From a virus (taxonomy: Duplodnaviria; Heunggongvirae; Uroviricota; Caudoviricetes), in IMG/VR virus record IMGVR_UViG_2660238269_000008: a stretch of 43,719 nt of DNA; one strand, given 5' to 3'. This document shows, one piece after another, positions 8,843 to 26,452 of the stretch. Position 1 is the first letter of the stretch; each line of letters starts with the position of its first letter. The notes below the pieces were generated by a model that was not told the origin of the DNA, ran no database searches, and was given only the letters and a program-made list of their open reading frames with translations. The position numbers and the translations under genes were made by a program.

Positions 8843-9583
8843 ATGAAAAACATTACGTCAGGTGGTGTTCTGGCAAGAGTCAGCAGATTTGTGCCGCAGG
8901 ATGCAATCCCTCCGTACCGTACGGTGGCGGAGTGGCGGGAATGGCAGCTTGCTGAAGGGCGTAAGCGAAGCGAGGAGGTTAATCGTCTGAATCATCAGAC
9001 GCGGGTTGAAAAAATCATTAACCGCTCCGGTATCCAGCCGCTTCACCGGAAGTGTACGTTCGGTAACTACCGGGTGCAGAACGATGGTCAGCGCCATGCC
9101 CTGAGTCAGGCGAAATCCATTGCGGCAGAGCTGGAAGGCGGCTGTACGAATTTTGTTTTCAGTGGCAGGCCTGGCACAGGAAAAAACCACCTGGCGGCGG
9201 CTATTGGCAACCACCTTCTGGCGAAAGGTCGCAGTGTGATTGTGATAACAGTGGCGGATGTGATGCTGGCGTTACATGGCAGCTACGACAACAAAAACTC
9301 GGGCGAAAAATTTTTGCAGGGATTGTGTGGCGTTGACCTGCTGGTACTGGATGAAATTGGCATGCAACGGGATACGCGTAATGAGCAGGTCACGCTGAAT
9401 CAGATTGTTGACCGCAGAACGGCATCGTTACTCAGTGTGGGGATGCTGACAAATCTTAACCATGCAGCGATGAATACACTTCTCGGCGAGCGGGTGATGG
9501 ACCGCATGTCCATGAACGGTGGTCGCTGGGTGACGTTTAACTGGGAGAGCTGGCGTCCGAACGTCAGCCAGCACAGGAACTGA
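8843..9583 (+). CDS. DnaC/IstB-like AAA+ helicase loader (YdaV-like)
   Basis: Walker A GRPGTGKNHLAAAIG, Walker B LLVLDEIG. Confidence 0.85.
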   Translation: MKNITSGGVLARVSRFVPQDAIPPYRTVAEWREWQLAEGRKRSEEVNRLNHQTRVEKIINRSGIQPLHRKCTFGNYRVQNDGQRHALSQAKSIAAELEGGCTNFVFSGRPGTGKNHLAAAIGNHLLAKGRSVIVITVADVMLALHGSYDNKNSGEKFLQGLCGVDLLVLDEIGMQRDTRNEQVTLNQIVDRRTASLLSVGMLTNLNHAAMNTLLGERVMDRMSMNGGRWVTFNWESWRPNVSQHRN

Positions 9584-9612: not shown

Positions 9613-10383
9613 ATGGAAACCGTATTGCATGCACTGAAAGCGATGGGTAAAGCCAATTCTGTTGAACTGGCGGCGCGGCTTGATATCAGCCGTGAAGAAG
9701 TTCTCAACGAACTGTGGGAACTCAAAAAAAATGGCGTTGTTGATAAAACGGGTCACACCTGGTTTCTGGCTGGCGAAGGTGAATCCCGGGTAACCGAAGA
9801 GCGGCCAGTAAAATCTGAAGCACAGGATATGCTGACCGGGGAGGTCGAACAAAAAGTTACCGCAGACATGATGATTGAGTTTATCGGTCAGGATGGTGCT
9901 AAAACGTGTGAGGAACTGGCGGGTAAGTTCGGCGTCAGTACTCGCAAGGTTGCCTCCACGCTGGCGGTGGTAACCGCAACGGGGCGGCTGGCACGCGTTA
10001 ATCAGAACGGTAAATTTCGTTACTGCATGCCGGGGGGTAATTTACCAGCAGATCCGAAAGCCGCGCCGGTAACGGAAAATGATGGTAAGGCCTTTCCTCA
10101 GCCAGCAGGTGCTGCGTTACCAGTCCGGGAAGCCGCAACACAGGAAGAAATTAAAACAGAAACTGTGGCGGACATTGTGCAGTCGTTGCCATCGTTTACC
10201 AAAACGCAAGCAGATGAGCTGATTTTTCCGTCCCTGCGCAGGGCAAACCTGGCGCTGCGCAGGGCGAAAAGTGATGTTCAGAAGTGGGAGCGAGTCTGCG
10301 CCGCGCTGCGGGAGCTGAACAAGCACCGGGATATTGTTCGACAGATTACTGATTCTTCCCGCCGTGTTGTATCGGAAAAGTGA
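9613..10383 (+). CDS. Conserved prophage protein, function unknown
   Basis: 256-aa ORF with good coding character and GGAGG upstream. Confidence 0.6.
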   Translation: METVLHALKAMGKANSVELAARLDISREEVLNELWELKKNGVVDKTGHTWFLAGEGESRVTEERPVKSEAQDMLTGEVEQKVTADMMIEFIGQDGAKTCEELAGKFGVSTRKVASTLAVVTATGRLARVNQNGKFRYCMPGGNLPADPKAAPVTENDGKAFPQPAGAALPVREAATQEEIKTETVADIVQSLPSFTKTQADELIFPSLRRANLALRRAKSDVQKWERVCAALRELNKHRDIVRQITDSSRRVVSEK

Positions 10384-10398
10384 TTGCCGGAGGCGCTT

Positions 10399-10791
10399 AT
10401 GGCAAAAGTATTTACACCAGAAGAGCGGGAAGAAGTGAAGGCGCGCATTGTGGAATTCGTGCGCCTGAGCGGACGAGAAACTTTTCGACAACTGGCAGAT
10501 AACACGGGTGTCAGTAAGACCGCTATTCGTCGTTTATCTGGTGCGCTTGCGGCCAGTGGTGATGTCTGGCTCTCTGATTGCGGGGTATTTCCATCAGAGC
10601 AGGCGTATCGCGTATGGCGTAAGACACCGGAGAAGGCTGCTGACCCGACACTGATTCGAAAGTTACCTGACGGAGAAATACGTCGTTACAACAGACGGCA
10701 GAACATAATTTGTCGTGAGTGCCGCCAGAGCGAAGTTATGCAGCGTGTGCTGGCTTTCTATCAGGGGAATTTTCAGAAGGTGCTGTTGTGA
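10399..10791 (+). CDS. Conserved prophage protein, function unknown
   Basis: ORF 10384..10791; ATG at 10399 with GGAGG 6 nt upstream. Confidence 0.55.
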   Translation: MAKVFTPEEREEVKARIVEFVRLSGRETFRQLADNTGVSKTAIRRLSGALAASGDVWLSDCGVFPSEQAYRVWRKTPEKAADPTLIRKLPDGEIRRYNRRQNIICRECRQSEVMQRVLAFYQGNFQKVLL

Positions 10792-12144: not shown

Positions 12145-12435
12145 CCTGGTCTGAAGCATTCCACAACGGTAGGAATCGCACTGGCGGTGGCGCTGGTGGT
12201 GTATTCGATTTGCCGCTGGGGATAAAAACGGTTTGCGGGAAAAGGAGAGTTAAGTAGAATTGCTGCGGGTGCTTGAGGCTGTTTGCCTCGGGCATGCCGC
12301 CGTAAGGCAGACAGAGAAAAGCCCCAGTTAACATTACGCGTCTTGCAGGACGCTTAACATTAATCTGAGGCCCAATCTATGCTTCACAAACGTAGGTTAG
12401 CCTCTTACGTGCCGAAAGGCAAGGAGAAGCAGGCT

Positions 12436-12591
12436 ATGAAGCAGCAAAAGGCGATGTTAATCGCCCTGATCGTCATCTGTTTAACCGTCATAGTGACGGC
12501 ACTGGTAACGAGGAAAGACCTCTGCGAGGTACGAATCCGAACCGGCCAGACGGAGGTTGCTGTCTTCGTAGACTACGAATCTGAGAAGTAA
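12436..12591 (+). CDS. hok: Hok/Gef-family type I toxin (HokD/RelF-like)
   Basis: MKQQKAMLIALIVICLTVIVTALVTRKDLCEVRIRTGQTEVAVFVDYESEK is near-identical to HokD/RelF as recalled; long structured leader upstream and hairpins downstream. Confidence 0.9.
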   Translation: MKQQKAMLIALIVICLTVIVTALVTRKDLCEVRIRTGQTEVAVFVDYESEK

Positions 12592-16955: not shown

Positions 16956-18014
16956 ATGTTTAATACTGTAAAAATATCCAGTTGTGAGTTAATCAACGCC
17001 GACTGCCTGGAATTTATCCGGTCGTTACCCGAAAATTCTGTTGACCTGATAGTCACGGACCCGCCGTACTTTAAAGTGAAGCCTGAGGGCTGGGATAACC
17101 AGTGGACGGGTGATGAGGATTACCTGAAATGGCTGGACCAGTGTCTGGCGCAGTTCTGGCGGGTGCTGAAACCTGCCGGAAGTCTTTACCTGTTCTGTGG
17201 CCATCGCCTGGCATCTGATATCGAAATCATGATGCGTGAACGCTTCAGTGTGCTGAACCATATTATCTGGGCGAAGCCGTCCGGACGCTGGAACGGGTGC
17301 AACAAGGAAAGCCTGAGGGCGTATTTCCCCGCCACAGAGCGCATTCTGTTCGCGGAACATTATCAGGGGCCGTATCGTCCGAAAGATGCCGGGTATGAGG
17401 CGAAGGGCAGGGCACTGAAACAGCATGTGATGGCTCCGCTGATTGCTTACTTTCGTGATGCGCGTGCTGCCCTGGGGATAACGGCAAAACAGATAGTGGA
17501 TGCCACAGGAAAGAAAAACATGGTGTCGCACTGGTTCAGTGCCAGTCAGTGGCAGCTACCGAACGAAAGTGATTATCTGAAATTACAGGCGCTGTTTGCC
17601 CGGGTGGCAGAAGAGAAGCATCAGCGCGGTGAACTGGAAAAGCCCCACCACCAGCTGCTGGAGACGTATACTTCACTGAACCGGCAGTATGCGGAACTGC
17701 AGAGTGAATATAAGCATCTGCGGCGGTATTTTGGCGTGACGGCGCAGGTGCCATACACGGATGTGTGGACGCATAAACCGGTGCAGTACTATCCCGGGAA
17801 ACATCCGTGCGAAAAACCGGCAGAAATGCTGCAGCAGATAATCAGCGCGAGCAGTCGTCCGGGGGACCTGGTTGCAGATTTCTTCATGGGGTCGGGTTCG
17901 ACAGTCAAAGCCGCGATGGCGCTGGGGCGTCGTGCAACTGGCGTTGAGCTGGAGACTGAACGTTTTGAGCAGACGGTCAGGGAAGTACGGGATTTAGTCA
18001 GTCAGAATGGATGA
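16956..18014 (+). CDS. Orphan DNA methyltransferase (amino-MTase, beta class: DPPY motif IV precedes FxGxG motif I)
   Basis: VTDPPY near the N-terminus, DLVADFFMGSGST near the C-terminus, with a charged/coiled-coil-like segment between; no adjacent restriction endonuclease. Confidence 0.85.
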   Translation: MFNTVKISSCELINADCLEFIRSLPENSVDLIVTDPPYFKVKPEGWDNQWTGDEDYLKWLDQCLAQFWRVLKPAGSLYLFCGHRLASDIEIMMRERFSVLNHIIWAKPSGRWNGCNKESLRAYFPATERILFAEHYQGPYRPKDAGYEAKGRALKQHVMAPLIAYFRDARAALGITAKQIVDATGKKNMVSHWFSASQWQLPNESDYLKLQALFARVAEEKHQRGELEKPHHQLLETYTSLNRQYAELQSEYKHLRRYFGVTAQVPYTDVWTHKPVQYYPGKHPCEKPAEMLQQIISASSRPGDLVADFFMGSGSTVKAAMALGRRATGVELETERFEQTVREVRDLVSQNG

Positions 18015-18054: not shown

Positions 18055-18130
18055 GGCCCTTTAGCTCAGTGGTGAGAGCGAGCGACTCATAATCGCCAGG
18101 TCGCTGGTTCAAATCCAGCAAGGGCCACCA
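18055..18130 (+). tRNA. ileZ: tRNA with CAU anticodon (Ile2, lysidine type; ileZ-like)
   Basis: Hand-folded cloverleaf: acceptor GGCCCTT/AAGGGCC, loop CTCATAA, T-loop TTCAAAT, 3' CCA; closely resembles E. coli ileX as recalled. Confidence 0.85.
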
Positions 18131-18139
18131 TATCACATA

Positions 18140-18216
18140 CCGCCATTAGCTCATCGGGATAGAGCGCCAGCCTTCGAAGCTGGCTGCGCGGGGTTCGAGT
18201 CCTCGATGGCGGTCCA
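18140..18216 (+). tRNA. tRNA-Arg (anticodon read as UCG)
   Basis: Hand-folded cloverleaf: acceptor CCGCCAT/ATGGCGG, anticodon stem CCAGC/GCTGG, loop CTTCGAA, T-loop TTCGAGT, 3' CCA. Confidence 0.75.
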
Positions 18217-18494
18217 TTATCTGCATTATGCGTTGTTGGTTCTGATGAGTGAATCATTGTCTTTTGAGCAACAGGCTATCATATAAGATAGCCTCAGACT
18301 TCCTTGTTTATTCTCGCCGGATGCTTCGTAGATATTTGCAGGCATCTGTATGCAGGGGTATTATTGCGGCATATATCATCCGGAAAAATAAAAACTACAT
18401 GCTGATCCGGAGATGATAGTTACAAGTCCTCCCGGATCCCGCATATTTACTATATTTTATAGATAATTGTTCTTGTTAATATGGAGATGGATAA

Positions 18495-18923
18495 ATGTAT
18501 TGCCGTGCTGTACCTGTTCTTGTTTTGATATTAGCCAGTCTGACAACTGGCTGCACAAAAGATGTATCGACAAATAATCATGATGCTTCTCTGTATCACT
18601 CAGATAAATTAATAAAGTCGCAAAATTTGAGCTCATCGGAACGTACCCCTGATGCCAGTGAAGAAATCCGGCAGTATGCCATTCAGGTCAGGAAAGCCAT
18701 AGAAGAACAGTTAAAGGATGCGAGTAAGTATTCAGGAAAAGAGTGTTCACTGAGAATGTATATGGCCCCGAATGGTCTTCTGCTACAGGTTAAAAGAGAA
18801 AGCGGTGATCCCGATTTATGTCGTGAAGCGATGAATGCAGTAAAGAATGCTGATATACCATCACCACCGTCTTCAGGAGTATATAAAGCATTTAGAAATG
18901 GCGTGCTGGATTTTAAACTCTGA
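18495..18923 (+). CDS. Lipoprotein with a TolA C-terminal domain III-like fold
   Basis: Signal peptide with lipobox LTTG-C; residues 60-142 align with E. coli TolA C-terminus (YAGKTCTLRIKLAPDGMLLDIKPEGGDPALCQAA...PKPPSQAVYEVFKNAPLDFKP vs SGKECSLRMYMAPNGLLLQVKRESGDPDLCREA...PSPPSSGVYKAFRNGVLDFKL). Confidence 0.8.
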   Translation: MYCRAVPVLVLILASLTTGCTKDVSTNNHDASLYHSDKLIKSQNLSSSERTPDASEEIRQYAIQVRKAIEEQLKDASKYSGKECSLRMYMAPNGLLLQVKRESGDPDLCREAMNAVKNADIPSPPSSGVYKAFRNGVLDFKL

Positions 18924-18980
18924 CAGGGGGAGAAGATTTTCTCCTGTCCTGATGATTTTGGGGCGCTGGAAAGATATTGT

Positions 18981-19240
18981 TCTGTGAAGTGTTAAATCCC
19001 TCACAATTCAGTAAGTTGACAGTTGCCTGTCAGACTGAGCATTTGTTAAAAAAATTTCGCATGGTGAATCCCCCTGTGCGGAGGGGCGACTGGTGAACGG
19101 TATGATCTCTTTGATGATCGTAAGCGAGAATACGCGGGTTTGGTGTCACCGGGCTGAACTCACCGGGAGGCACCCGGCACCATGCTCATGGTGATACAGA
19201 AATGCGGCTTCAGCCCCTCTCCGGAGGGGCTTTCTTATGG
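18981..19240 (+). repeat. Isolated copy (U1) of the ~250-bp hairpin-rich repeat family, ending in an intrinsic terminator
   Basis: Carries the three conserved modules tgttaaat.cctcaca, catggtgaatccccctgtgcggaggggc and ctcaccgggaggcacccggcaccatg, then gcccctctccggaggggc plus T-rich tail. Confidence 0.8.
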
Positions 19241-19384
19241 ACAAAAAAAGCCCGCGCTGGGAGACGCGGGCGGCAAGGAATAAACAATAAAACGTGAAGT
19301 AATACTTCAACTGGCGAATAATACCCGACAGTAATCACTCTGCGCAATAGCGTGGCCTTTTTCGAATTGCGGGCTGTAGTCTCC

Positions 19385-19556
19385 CTTCTGCCGGGTGTCC
19401 AGGTTGCAGATTTCTTCATGGGGTAGGGTTCGGCAGTTAAAGCAGCGATGGCGCTGGGGCGTCGTGCAACTGGCGTTGAGCTGGATACCGGGCGTTTTGA
19501 ACAGACTGCGCAGGAAATCAGGGATGTATTTAGCGGGAGCGGTTTGCAGAAGTAAT
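19385..19556 (+). pseudogene. 3' remnant of a second, diverged DNA methyltransferase gene
   Basis: High by-eye identity to the 3' end of the intact MTase (17866..18014), ends at an equivalent stop, but has an in-frame TAG in place of the MTase TCG codon and no 5' part. Confidence 0.75.
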
Positions 19557-20433: not shown

Positions 20434-20712
20434 GTGAATATTGATGAGAAAATCAGATGTAGCCAACTGTTACAGCGTATTGAAGCCGTCAATGTGGAAC
20501 GAACAAAGGTCTTCAGTCGTCTGACAGTTTTATTTTGTACCCCTGATCGACGTTCAGGTCAGGAGATGGTTCTTCTGGATGTAGATGCACTTCGGAACGT
20601 CTGTGAGGAGTTCACCGCGGCTAATTCGGAGTTACTGAGTCTTGTTCAGGAGTACAACAGAATTGCAGGTAGTAACGGTTTTGATGAAATCAAAATTATA
20701 TCCCGTGGATAA
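20434..20712 (+). CDS. Small hypothetical protein (92 aa) downstream of the AraC-like regulator
   Basis: ORF with GTG start; same strand as the regulator. Confidence 0.4.
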   Translation: MNIDEKIRCSQLLQRIEAVNVERTKVFSRLTVLFCTPDRRSGQEMVLLDVDALRNVCEEFTAANSELLSLVQEYNRIAGSNGFDEIKIISRG

Positions 20713-20954: not shown

Positions 20955-21980
20955 ATGGAAATGTTAAATGACTCACAATTCGGTTGATGGGCTATTGTCT
21001 GATCGATGGAAGTCTTGTAAAAACGAGCCAGCATAGTGAATCCCCCTGTGCGGAGGGGCGTCTGACATGGTCTCCATAGCGATGGTCACAATACGCAGAT
21101 TCAGTAGTCAGGCTGAATCTACCGGGAGGCACCCGGCACTATGCTGCTTATGGTGTATACATAGCGATCGGCCCCTCTCCGGAGGGGCTTTTTTTGTGCG
21201 GGAAAAGGCTGTGTTGTTAAGTGTTAAATTCCTCACAGTTCAGATGGTTGATGCTTGCCTGTCTGAGGGGGAGTTGTTAAAAAAGTTCTGCATGGTGAAT
21301 CCCCCTGTGCGGAGGGGCGACTGGTGTGATTTGCATCTTTTCTGTTGTAGGCAATGCAAACGCGGGTTCAGGGACACCAGACTGGACTCACCGGGAGGCA
21401 CCCGGCACCATGTTCATGATGATACAGATACGCAGTGTCAGCCCCTCTCCTGAGGGGCTTTTTTATGCAGGAAAAACGCTGTGTTGTGAAATGTTAAATT
21501 CCTCACAGTTCAGATGGTTGATGCTTGCCTGTCTTACGGGGAGTTGTTAAAAAAGTTCTGCATGGTGAATCCCCCTGAGCGGAGGGGCATATCAGCGCAG
21601 GTGTTTCTACTCTATCCTTTCTGTGCGGGTTCAGGTGCTGATACTGAACTCACCGGGAGGCACCCGGCATCATGCATATGGTTAACAGACACGTAGCGAA
21701 GCCCCTCTCCGGAGGGGCTTTTTTATGCAGGGAAAAGGCTGTGTTGTGAAATGTTAAATTCCTCACAATTCATGAGGTTGATGATTGTCTGATTGATGAG
21801 GAGTTTGTTAAAAAAAACGGGCATGGTGAATCCCCCTGTGCGGAGGGGTGATATCGTATCATTTCCTGTGTGGCCGACTGATATCACGGACATTTGTTCA
21901 CCGGGAGGCACCCGGCACCATGCAGTATACAGAGATTAGGCATACATCCAGGCTCCTCATCGCAGGAGCCTTTTTACATG
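20955..21980 (+). repeat. Tandem array of four ~250-bp units (U2-U5) of the hairpin-rich repeat family; candidate structured ncRNA genes
   Basis: Units at about 20955-21196, 21205-21465, 21481-21726, 21741-21980; same conserved modules in each; variable segments keep self-complementarity; each unit ends in a terminator hairpin plus T-run. Confidence 0.8.
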
Positions 21981-22208
21981 TAAAAAAAAACCGCTCCTGG
22001 GAAGAGCGGTTGGCAAGGAAGCAAGGAATAAATAACAAAACGTGAAGTAATTTATTCAGCACCCTAATAATACCTTAGAGTAATCACCTTGCGCAACTGT
22101 AAGGGCGTATTTCTTTTTTGCGGGCTGTTTTTCTGTGTGACTTTTGTGTTTCCGGAGGTCAGCCCGTGCCTTCTCTGACTCAGAACATTATCCCGGCCGG
22201 GAGGATTC

Positions 22209-25782: not shown

Positions 25783-26007
25783 ATGAAGAAATTACTGGTA
25801 ACCGTAAAGCCTTTTCAGGGAACAATTCCGTTCCGTATTTTGCAGCGTGGTCGTGTTCTTGTTGAAGGTTCGTTCAGTGGTAAATGTACGCAATTACACT
25901 CCCGGACCTTTCAGGTGAATGCCACGAATGAAGAGCTAACCGTTGAGTATACGATGAATGCCGCTAAATTCCGCATGGTATCCGCTGCATTACAGCCAGT
26001 GTGTTGA
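25783..26007 (+). CDS. Small hypothetical protein (74 aa) after the lysis cassette
   Basis: ATG at 25783 with GGAGAA upstream; within ORF 25765..26007. Confidence 0.4.
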   Translation: MKKLLVTVKPFQGTIPFRILQRGRVLVEGSFSGKCTQLHSRTFQVNATNEELTVEYTMNAAKFRMVSAALQPVC

Positions 26008-26254
26008 GCGACCTTATTATTCATGCGCGGTATTGTCGCCGTATTCCTGCATTAACAGAGACCGCAGCCCGACCGGGAGACTCCTCTGCGCGAGTGTGCG
26101 GGGATAATCAAAAACGATACACACCGGGGTTTACCGCGTTAACGGAGCGCGGCGTTGTCCCCTCATGGTCGCTGGTCCGGTGCGATGGTGGAAGAAACTG
26201 GATTTTGTTGCAACTGATAACCATTATCATTTTCGCGGGTCCTTTCCGGCGATC

Positions 26255-26290
26255 CGGGCCGTTACGGGGCGGCGACCTCGCGCGTTTTCA
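26255..26290. other. cos: cos site (cosN) with lambda-type cohesive-end sequence
   Basis: GGGCGGCGACCT at 26266..26277 followed by CGCGTTTTCACTATTTATGAAAATTTTC, matching the lambda cos region as recalled; upstream of nu1. Confidence 0.8.
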
Positions 26291-26452
26291 CTATTTATGA
26301 AAATTTTCTGGGGAAAATCATGTCGGTACTGATTATATGTAATGTATTGTTTTTAAACGGTACGTAAGAAAAAAGGACCGTCACAGGTGCGTGGAAGAAA
26401 GGCATTTTCAGGCCGTTTTGTGTCGTAACTGATTTTTGAATGAGGTTGTTGT

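Follow-up and report, generated by a model that had tools for sequence, protein, structure and literature searches.

A lipid-anchored copy of TolA domain III in the stx2 slot of a lambdoid prophage: a candidate decoy for Tol-dependent import

Why would a prophage encode, in the place where related phages carry Shiga toxin (Stx), a free-standing copy of the tip of its host's TolA protein? The question is raised by a gene at 18495..18923 (+) of the IMG/VR record IMGVR_UViG_2660238269_000008, a lambdoid prophage sequence of 43,719 nucleotides which we refer to at its full length as the window. An earlier interpretation made from the letters alone (the sequence-only reading) took the product for a lipoprotein ending in TolA domain III (TolA III) and proposed that it could act as a decoy that blocks TolA-dependent import or could perturb Tol-Pal function. 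We find that the gene encodes an exported TolA III domain on a lipoprotein tether, and that comparison across mobile elements favors an outer membrane-tethered decoy blocking Tol-dependent import, a reading to which we give about an even chance of being correct.

Read from the sequence, the 142-codon frame is a real gene, with a Shine-Dalgarno-like GGAG (18483..18486, +) at 8 nt 5' of the ATG. Residues 1-19 (MYCRAVPVLVLILASLTTG; 18495..18551, +) form a lipoprotein signal peptide that ends in the lipobox L-T-T-G before Cys20 (18552..18554, +), the predicted lipidated residue 1 of the mature protein. The segment conforms to the PROSITE PS51257-type lipobox rule, with R4 in the n-region and an uncharged stretch from V10 to S15 followed by L16-T17-T18-G19-C20, and Gly19-Cys20 is nearly invariant in the alignment of homologues, whose lipoboxes read LTAGC, IIIGC or LLLTGC. 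This cleavable peptide is the sole hydrophobic segment of the protein. The +2 rule of the Lol pathway is an established sorting rule for bacterial lipoproteins, and because the mature N terminus after Cys20 has Thr, not Asp, at +2 (with Lys at +3), the lipoprotein is predicted to sort to the outer membrane via Lol. Next comes a flexible tether of ∼33 residues (21-53; 18555..18653, +) that is unrelated to TolA domain II: it matched no Pfam family and gave no match to domain II in the Pfam and NCBIfam TolA profiles, and residues 28-48 have an AlphaFold2 predicted local distance difference test score (pLDDT) below 50 and no secondary structure.

The remainder of the protein, residues 54-142 (18654..18920, +), is by domain and fold matches a complete TolA III with three main helices, three strands and a Cys84/Cys109 disulfide pair. 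Pfam PF06519 matches residues 54-141 (E=5.7e-23; 81.4 bits against a cut-off of 25), and a phmmer search of the PDB returned the TolA III chains 1S62, 3QDP, 2X9A and 1TOL at E values of about 1e-25. Identity to residues 333-420 of Escherichia coli TolA is 51%, with 45 of 89 positions the same, including the disulfide Cys363/Cys388, and Cys84 and Cys109 are invariant across the family. An AlphaFold2 model built from an alignment of 60 sequences has pLDDT values >95 at residues 52-142 and gave, on superposition, a distance of 0.6 Å to 2X9A_B for 85 residues and of 0.7 Å to 1TOL; Foldseek scored the match to 2X9A_B at probability 1.00, a root-mean-square deviation of 0.6 Å and a target-normalized TM score of 0.93, and TonB C-terminal domains scored much lower than TolA III. 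Both the signal peptide and the TolA-like C terminus named in the sequence-only reading are thus borne out, the latter far beyond chance and also at the level of solved structures. Among the viral structures in BFVD, no TolA III fold was found at E ≤ 1e-3.

By sequence and fold the protein belongs to the TolA C-terminal domain family, yet it is not a TolA. Judged by the NCBIfam profiles, it lacks both domain I, the N-terminal transmembrane helix that couples TolA to TolQ-TolR, and the long domain II, and its gene is encoded in a lambdoid prophage outside the tol-pal operon (ybgC-tolQRA-tolB-pal-cpoB). We considered whether it could nonetheless be a genuine auxiliary TolA that supplements or replaces the host protein in outer membrane upkeep, as might be read from its score above the TIGR02794 cut-off (75.9 versus 59.45 bits). 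That match is confined to positions 266-361 of the 362 in the model, and the PRK09510 profile, which aligns only at positions 297-386 of 387, reaches 103 bits where its cut-off is 213, so that in each case only the last ∼90 model positions are involved; without a TolQR-coupling anchor no force transduction is possible. This explanation has next to no probability in our estimate. With neither domain I nor domain II present, the protein is misnamed "tolA" in RefSeq, a name that presumably arises because the C-terminal domain alone passes the TIGR02794 cut-off in the NCBI annotation pipeline (PGAP). The PGAP label "tolA: cell envelope integrity protein TolA" is attached to lipoproteins of 115-160 residues in ∼900 RefSeq E. 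coli genomes and >1300 plasmids, and automatic pipelines label the whole set described below "TolA". The spurious second tolA in many genomes is a systematic misannotation, and a database correction would affect hundreds of genomes that list a second "tolA" unable to be TolA.

A different way to dismiss the locus would be to regard it as a decaying, functionless fragment of captured host tolA that has been miscalled as a gene. Some copies are labeled partial in RefSeq, and the C termini of some homologues (P0019-P0029) are frameshifted. The window protein has, however, acquired a new lipoprotein signal and tether in place of a truncated domain II, and its 142-residue frame is intact in 80 of 80 IMG/VR loci. 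The ratio of nonsynonymous to synonymous substitution rates (dN/dS) between alleles is 0.23-0.36 for the domain and ∼0.34 for the tether when compared with the allele of phage mEp460. The alleles number at least three and have diverged, the families with lipoboxes run to dozens, and the disulfide cysteines are invariant. Decay is therefore very improbable, and we consider both the pseudogene and the true-TolA readings effectively ruled out.

E. coli and Shigella carry three allele groups, all with lipoboxes. Among 5426 complete E. coli genomes, the window allele is present in about 123 and the mEp460-type allele, which is 67% identical to it, in about 782; any allele is found in 895, or about 16%. 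A scan of GTDB species found only Shigella flexneri, which confines the subfamily to E. coli and Shigella. The phage alleles have in common 18 fixed substitutions relative to TolA, including those at K368, P380 and A415/P416. A neighbor-joining tree of the domain is star-like and does not separate a single from a repeated origin of these mini-TolA proteins.

Reading along the prophage, antiterminator Q is followed by two small open reading frames, a DNA methyltransferase, the tRNA genes ileZ and argN, the TolA-like gene, an STnc100 small RNA (sRNA), what is left of a second methyltransferase 3' end, a regulator of the AraC family, four further STnc100 copies, a NanS-p-type esterase and then holin, endolysin and spanin. 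The DNA N6/N4 methyltransferase (16956..18014, +; Pfam PF01555, E=6.9e-44, and RefSeq) is the left anchor of the cargo cassette, and the tRNA module directly upstream of the gene (18055..18216, +; ileZ with a CAT and argN with a TCG anticodon) is held in common with Stx2 phages. ARAGORN calls the tRNA at 18055-18130 Met(CAT); RefSeq and the Stx-phage records name it ileZ (tRNA-Ile2, with a lysidine-modified CAT). Across the methylase-tRNA segment, identity to Stx2a phages is 97-98% as far as about position 18237 of the window, ∼20 nt past argN, and at the point where this homology ends the Stx2a phages have argO followed by stx2A/B. Because the homology stops where argO-stx2AB begins, the gene occupies the stx2 slot exactly, and the placement proposed in the sequence-only reading is confirmed, with NanS-p and the lysis cassette following downstream.

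The methylase-tRNA segment is common to 285 phage records, mostly Stx2 phages. The sole phage record that carries the TolA-like gene, mEp460_ev081, is not Stx-converting, and stx2A was found in none of the 80 viral contigs that carry the gene. The gene and stx2 thus seem to be alternative cargoes. The TolA-like gene is a moron by base composition (40% GC for the gene plus the 278-nt spacer upstream of it, versus 54-57% in the methylase and tRNA flank) and by its insertion between conserved phage modules. The remnant at 19391..19555 (+) marks the right end of the cassette of tRNAs, TolA-like gene and STnc100; it corresponds to a RefSeq pseudogene at 20992-21156 of the locus from E. coli 2013C-3181 (L001), placed on the window with an offset of 1601, and it duplicates 17850-18014, with off-frame open reading frames that resemble those at 17872-17997. 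This duplication of the methylase 3' end at the cassette border suggests that cargo modules were added next to one another through recombination between 3' ends of the methylase. The 601 bases at 18400-19000 recur at 100% identity in several genomes of STEC (Shiga toxin-producing E. coli) other than O157.

This site invites an explanation in terms of lysis. Timed by pR' and Q, the exported TolA III could titrate the N terminus of TolB and leave TolB-Pal unrecycled, so that the outer membrane would loosen or vesiculate, aiding lysis and the release of virions or of periplasmic cargo. The gene occupies the stx2 slot inside the late operon and is oriented as stx2 is, and in three independent backbones of prophages it has Q on one side and holin, endolysin and spanin genes on the other; the strand that binds TolB is conserved; periplasmic TolAIII releases periplasmic proteins (PMC6195910); and tol mutants hypervesiculate (PMC7391070). 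Such sabotage of Tol-Pal would, however, duplicate the work of the spanin that these phages already have for outer membrane disruption, and it leaves unexplained the relatives of the window protein on elements that do not lyse their hosts, to which we now turn. On balance we regard it as fairly unlikely, but as the main rival of the decoy.

An exhaustive HMMER search yielded 305 cluster representatives, and ∼60 of the best 150 are proteins of 115-160 residues with lipoboxes. TolA-tip relatives occur in Serratia, Kosakonia, Scandinavium and other genera, and two metagenomic relatives (P0042 and P0041) lie on contigs too short for context. In 55 of 58 loci, a second, more divergent TolA-tip lipoprotein lies 600 nt downstream of the mEp460-type allele, immediately ahead of the lysis genes. 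Such pairs stand at 8001-8429 and 8580-8975 of the mEp460_ev081 locus (L002), in tandem before the lysis genes, and at 7001-7429 and 7601-7975 of the locus from E. coli EC28 (L003, NZ_CP049101), where a TonB-tip lipoprotein gene follows at 10203-10529, after iss/bor. The latter belongs to a parallel family: a lipoprotein of 108 residues with a TonB C-terminal domain (PF03544) is encoded after the lysis cassette in related prophages, including 6 of 21 loci with the window allele, and also in phage 21, in Stx1a phages and in CP-933N, where it is called a "partial tonB-like membrane protein". PHROGs files this TonB-tip family as "Rz-like spanin", a label that looks wrong, and lists phrog_5772, the family of the window protein, as of "unknown function".

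Plasmids carry the same kind of protein, with TolA-tip proteins encoded by 1329 of them. On the 10-kb ColRNAI plasmid p1_020002 of K. pneumoniae (L005, NZ_CP028539.3), tolA-domain and tonB-domain genes overlap (969-1340 and 1337-1702) in an apparent operon. This is a bacteriocin plasmid with colicin E3-like immunity and lysis genes, of a type that is very common in Klebsiella, and the pair consists of a TolA-tip lipoprotein and a TonB-tip protein whose export signal is of the signal peptidase I type; a survey of Klebsiella bacteriocins merely listed the plasmid "TolA" gene. A TolA-tip lipoprotein that is a close relative of the second paralogue of the prophages is encoded at 5947-6378 of the pO157-type plasmid pH2495-1 from E. 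coli O157:H7 (L007, NZ_CP038343.1). On such pO157-type IncF plasmids the gene has its place in the leading region, with psiB-psiA-hok upstream of it and toxB downstream. As this region is the first part of a plasmid to enter the recipient, the location is suggestive of a protective role. In an IncR plasmid of K. pneumoniae (L006, NZ_CP079123.1), a gene for a thioredoxin-fold protein (4173-4721), which may be a dedicated oxidoreductase for the TolA-tip disulfide, directly precedes a gene for a TolA-tip lipoprotein (4768-5202). Finally, Kosakonia chromosomes (L093 and L094) encode a mini-TolA lipoprotein at 8001-8423 that adjoins icd and a DinI gene, an arrangement conserved across species, with no phage structural genes within 8 kb. 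The icd gene is a classic prophage integration site, and this copy looks like a domesticated remnant. We also considered and dropped the idea that such genes underlie the "male-specific phage interference" of CloDF13, since CloDF13 does not have them (PMC10269471).

This distribution bears directly on the choice between lysis and protection. Because genes for TolA or TonB tips are found on prophages, bacteriocin plasmids, plasmid leading regions and a Kosakonia chromosome, they point to a function in living cells and not only in lysis. Sabotage of Tol-Pal accounts neither for the co-resident TonB-tip lipoproteins, as TonB has no structural role, nor for homologues on nonlytic elements such as the bacteriocin plasmid operon, the IncF leading region and IncR plasmids, nor for the Kosakonia copy without lysis genes. 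The company of TolA- and TonB-tip mimics is the strongest comparative argument for protection over help in lysis: on plasmids and in a chromosomal remnant, helping lysis would be senseless, but shielding the cell from toxins and phages that are imported would not.

The neighborhood of iss and bor raises a further alternative, namely that the protein modulates envelope stress or virulence in the manner of Bor or Iss. Mild interference with Tol-Pal could activate Rcs and sigma-E and lead to capsule, altered vesicles or serum resistance, with nonspecific phage resistance or a benefit in host colonization as the outcome. Defects in tol-pal do switch on Rcs and capsule (PMC7391070), the gene lies near iss/bor in related prophages, and it is enriched in STEC, avian pathogenic and extraintestinal pathogenic E. 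coli isolates. This proposal is purely inferential and finds no sequence feature specific to such a role, and it explains neither the mimicry of both the TolA and the TonB tip nor the link to bacteriocin plasmids; we hold it to be improbable.

We therefore return to the decoy and ask whether the copied domain has kept the surfaces that TolA ligands use. Strand β3 of TolA III binds the TolB N terminus and, in the opposite orientation, the N1 domain of the filamentous (Ff) phage protein g3p (PMC7391070; PMC7066135), and the colicin A site comprises strand β2 (residues 375-380) plus K368, K379 and K396 (PMC3365938). The β3 strand reads NGVLDFK in the phage protein and NAPLDFK in TolA, 5 of 7 residues being identical, and in a comparison of 40 diverse mini-TolA lipoproteins β3 ranks among the most conserved elements and the β2 edge is the least conserved strand. 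At the colicin A site, K379, K396, L375 and L376 are kept.

How such a decoy might act can be set out step by step. After processing by Sec, Lgt and LspA, the lipoprotein would be placed by Lol in the inner leaflet of the outer membrane, where the ∼33-residue tether would hold the disulfide-bonded copy of TolA III at the place where TolA-binding epitopes first reach the periplasm. Within its reach would be TolB-Pal, g3p-N1 and those translocation domains that colicins thread through porins. As domains I and II are absent, the copy could not be energized by TolQ-TolR and would only bind, so that epitopes of group A colicins, Ff g3p-N1 and the TolB N terminus would be captured unproductively. 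Import that needs energized TolA would stall, and a lysogen expressing the protein would gain tolerance of filamentous phages and of bacteriocins that depend on Tol. The window protein would then be one of a set of mobile-element decoys of TolA and TonB tips.

Experiments with engineered proteins are consistent with parts of this scheme. A fusion of TolAIII to a signal sequence reportedly made cells tolerant to group A colicins (Levengood-Freyermuth, in 1993), the outcome that we propose for the phage protein. Signal-sequence-fused TolAIII makes E. coli leaky (PMC6195910). Periplasmic g3p-N1 confers resistance to colicin A and a 4-log drop in phage uptake, for which the authors invoke sequestration of TolA (PMC10424213).

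Several points weigh against the decoy. Contacts in the colicin A site are changed (K368 to Y/H, P380 to R and D377 to Q/E), and the altered K368 is the partner of Tyr58 of ColA, the sole residue demonstrated to matter (PMC3365938). The conservation of β3 could come from fold stability alone. Complexes of TolA III are weak (Kd of about 40 μM with TolB; PMC7066135), so a decoy would have to be abundant, and abundant periplasmic TolA III damages the outer membrane; a decoy that binds TolB would itself harm the cell. The gene belongs to the late transcript that depends on Q, with the orientation and position of stx2, and its expression may be chiefly at induction, when protecting the cell is pointless. 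Signals that might set it apart from that transcript are at background frequency, with 12 promoter-like sites found in the region versus 13.3 expected and flanking terminator-like hairpins not above chance in our scans. No PADLOC defense model matched the window protein, and in the literature we found no functional work on phage or prophage TolA-like proteins, on tonB-like prophage genes or on their expression.

Taken together, the sequence-only reading stands in its description of an exported, membrane-tethered TolA III copy in the stx slot, and of the two functions it offered the decoy is the better supported comparatively; perturbation of Tol-Pal stays a live rival because of the late-transcript location and the changed colicin A contacts. 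If the decoy is extended to the whole set, Enterobacterales would harbor on their mobile elements (bacteriocin plasmids of the ColE1 type, IncF/IncR plasmids and lambdoid prophages) an unrecognized class of "import firewall", made up of exported copies of TolA and TonB tips, mostly tethered to the outer membrane, that intercept TolA-box and TonB-box epitopes. Its targets would be colicins, microcins, filamentous phages and TonB-dependent phages, with broad tolerance whatever the outer membrane receptor, and the window protein would be its Tol arm, swapped into the stx slot. We advance this generalization tentatively, at somewhat less than an even chance.

To our knowledge, no decoy copy of a force-transducer tip has been described from nature, and our literature search found no description of one. 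Cor (phi80, HK022 and N15) and Llp (T5) are small phage outer membrane lipoproteins that close the FhuA import route to rival phages and colicins. They share the logic and the kind of gene with the phage TolA-tip protein, but no sequence or fold relationship, and whereas they inactivate a receptor, the TolA-tip protein would mimic the tip of the periplasmic transducer, one step later. Exclusion by Ff g3p (pIII) targets the same interaction between g3p-N1 and TolA III and is the mirror image of the proposed decoy: there the ligand of the invader saturates the receptor, and here the ligand of the invader would be saturated by a receptor copy. The prophage TonB-tip lipoprotein sits in the same prophages and has the same design of lipobox, short linker and force-transducer C-terminal domain; it differs in that its domain is TonB_C (PF03544), not TolA, and in its place after the lysis cassette near bor/iss. 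E. coli TolA III itself (∼333-421; 1S62, 3QDP, 1TOL and 2X9A) is alike in fold, disulfide, β3 and the C-terminal LDFK, but it is the tip of a motor-coupled inner membrane protein, in contrast to a free-standing domain on a lipoprotein tether. Engineered periplasmic TolAIII (Levengood-Freyermuth 1993; Wan & Baneyx 1998) is likewise TolA III alone, uncoupled from TolQR; it is soluble, whereas the phage protein is natural, encoded on mobile elements, diverged and predicted to be lipid-anchored at the outer membrane. Against this background, the protein would, on the decoy reading, be classed as an exclusion or tolerance lipoprotein acting by mimicry of a host domain.

Were the decoy confirmed, about one in six sequenced E. 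coli and many Klebsiella and E. coli plasmids, including the pO157 type, would carry an unrecognized tolerance factor, with the TolA tip directed at filamentous phages and at bacteriocins that depend on Tol, and the TonB-tip partners directed at TonB-dependent ones. It would be relevant to colicin-based control of STEC in cattle and food, to phage display and to Ff biology in wild strains, and it may help to account for the many colicin-insensitive natural isolates without receptor mutations. Mimicry of an energy-transducer domain would join the mechanisms of superinfection exclusion, and the family would supply natural TolA III variants for mapping which face binds which ligand.

Around the gene, a few individual transcription signals deserve mention. 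A promoter scan found a promoter-like TTTGCA-18-TATTAT (18335..18364, +) in the AT-rich 278-nt spacer, a candidate for the gene's own promoter. A hairpin with an 8-bp stem just after the tRNAs (18273..18294, +; fold z-score -2.33) is a possible terminator that would shield the gene from upstream read-through. Over the stop codon lies a 12-bp hairpin followed by a U-rich stretch (18922..18948, +), a weak terminator candidate whose z-score of -0.76 is not significant and which the terminator scan did not list. We set aside one published lead on expression, a prophage "TolA" induced 32-fold by ciprofloxacin (EDL933_2012; PMC11125564), because the supplement shows it to be a tail-fiber protein.

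Directly downstream of the gene is a copy of the STnc100-family prophage sRNA (19030..19242, +; Rfam RF02076, 172 bits; terminator at 19212-19231). It is one of five on the plus strand, the others being at 21002-21197, 21261-21470, 21532-21730 and 21792-21981 (RF02076, 119-172 bits for the set), and each closes with a GC-rich terminator; one adjoins the TolA-like gene and a tandem group of four precedes NanS-p. In prophages of the mEp460 type, the TolA-like gene has an STnc100-like element on its upstream side instead. The STnc100 family is known and is related to PasD (bioRxiv 10.64898/2026.05.13.724894).

Farther downstream, a second cargo module of ∼40% GC holds the AraC-family regulator (PF12833/PF00165; 19619-20344, +) and a frame of 92 residues (20434-20712, +) that gave no Pfam match. 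AraC-like regulators of prophage origin are known in enterohemorrhagic E. coli, and this module was found in just 7 of 21 related viral loci. The near-identical prophage of E. coli 2013C-3181 has, between its lysis genes and terminase, an insertion (L001 27748-30726) that is absent from the window at ∼25800-26450; it contains an sce7726-family gene and a gene for a "beta family protein" that an IS3 element interrupts, and the site may be a hotspot for defense-type cargo. In the early region of the window prophage, the sok antitoxin RNA of a hok/sok module lies at 12267-12441 (+; RF01794, 116 bits).

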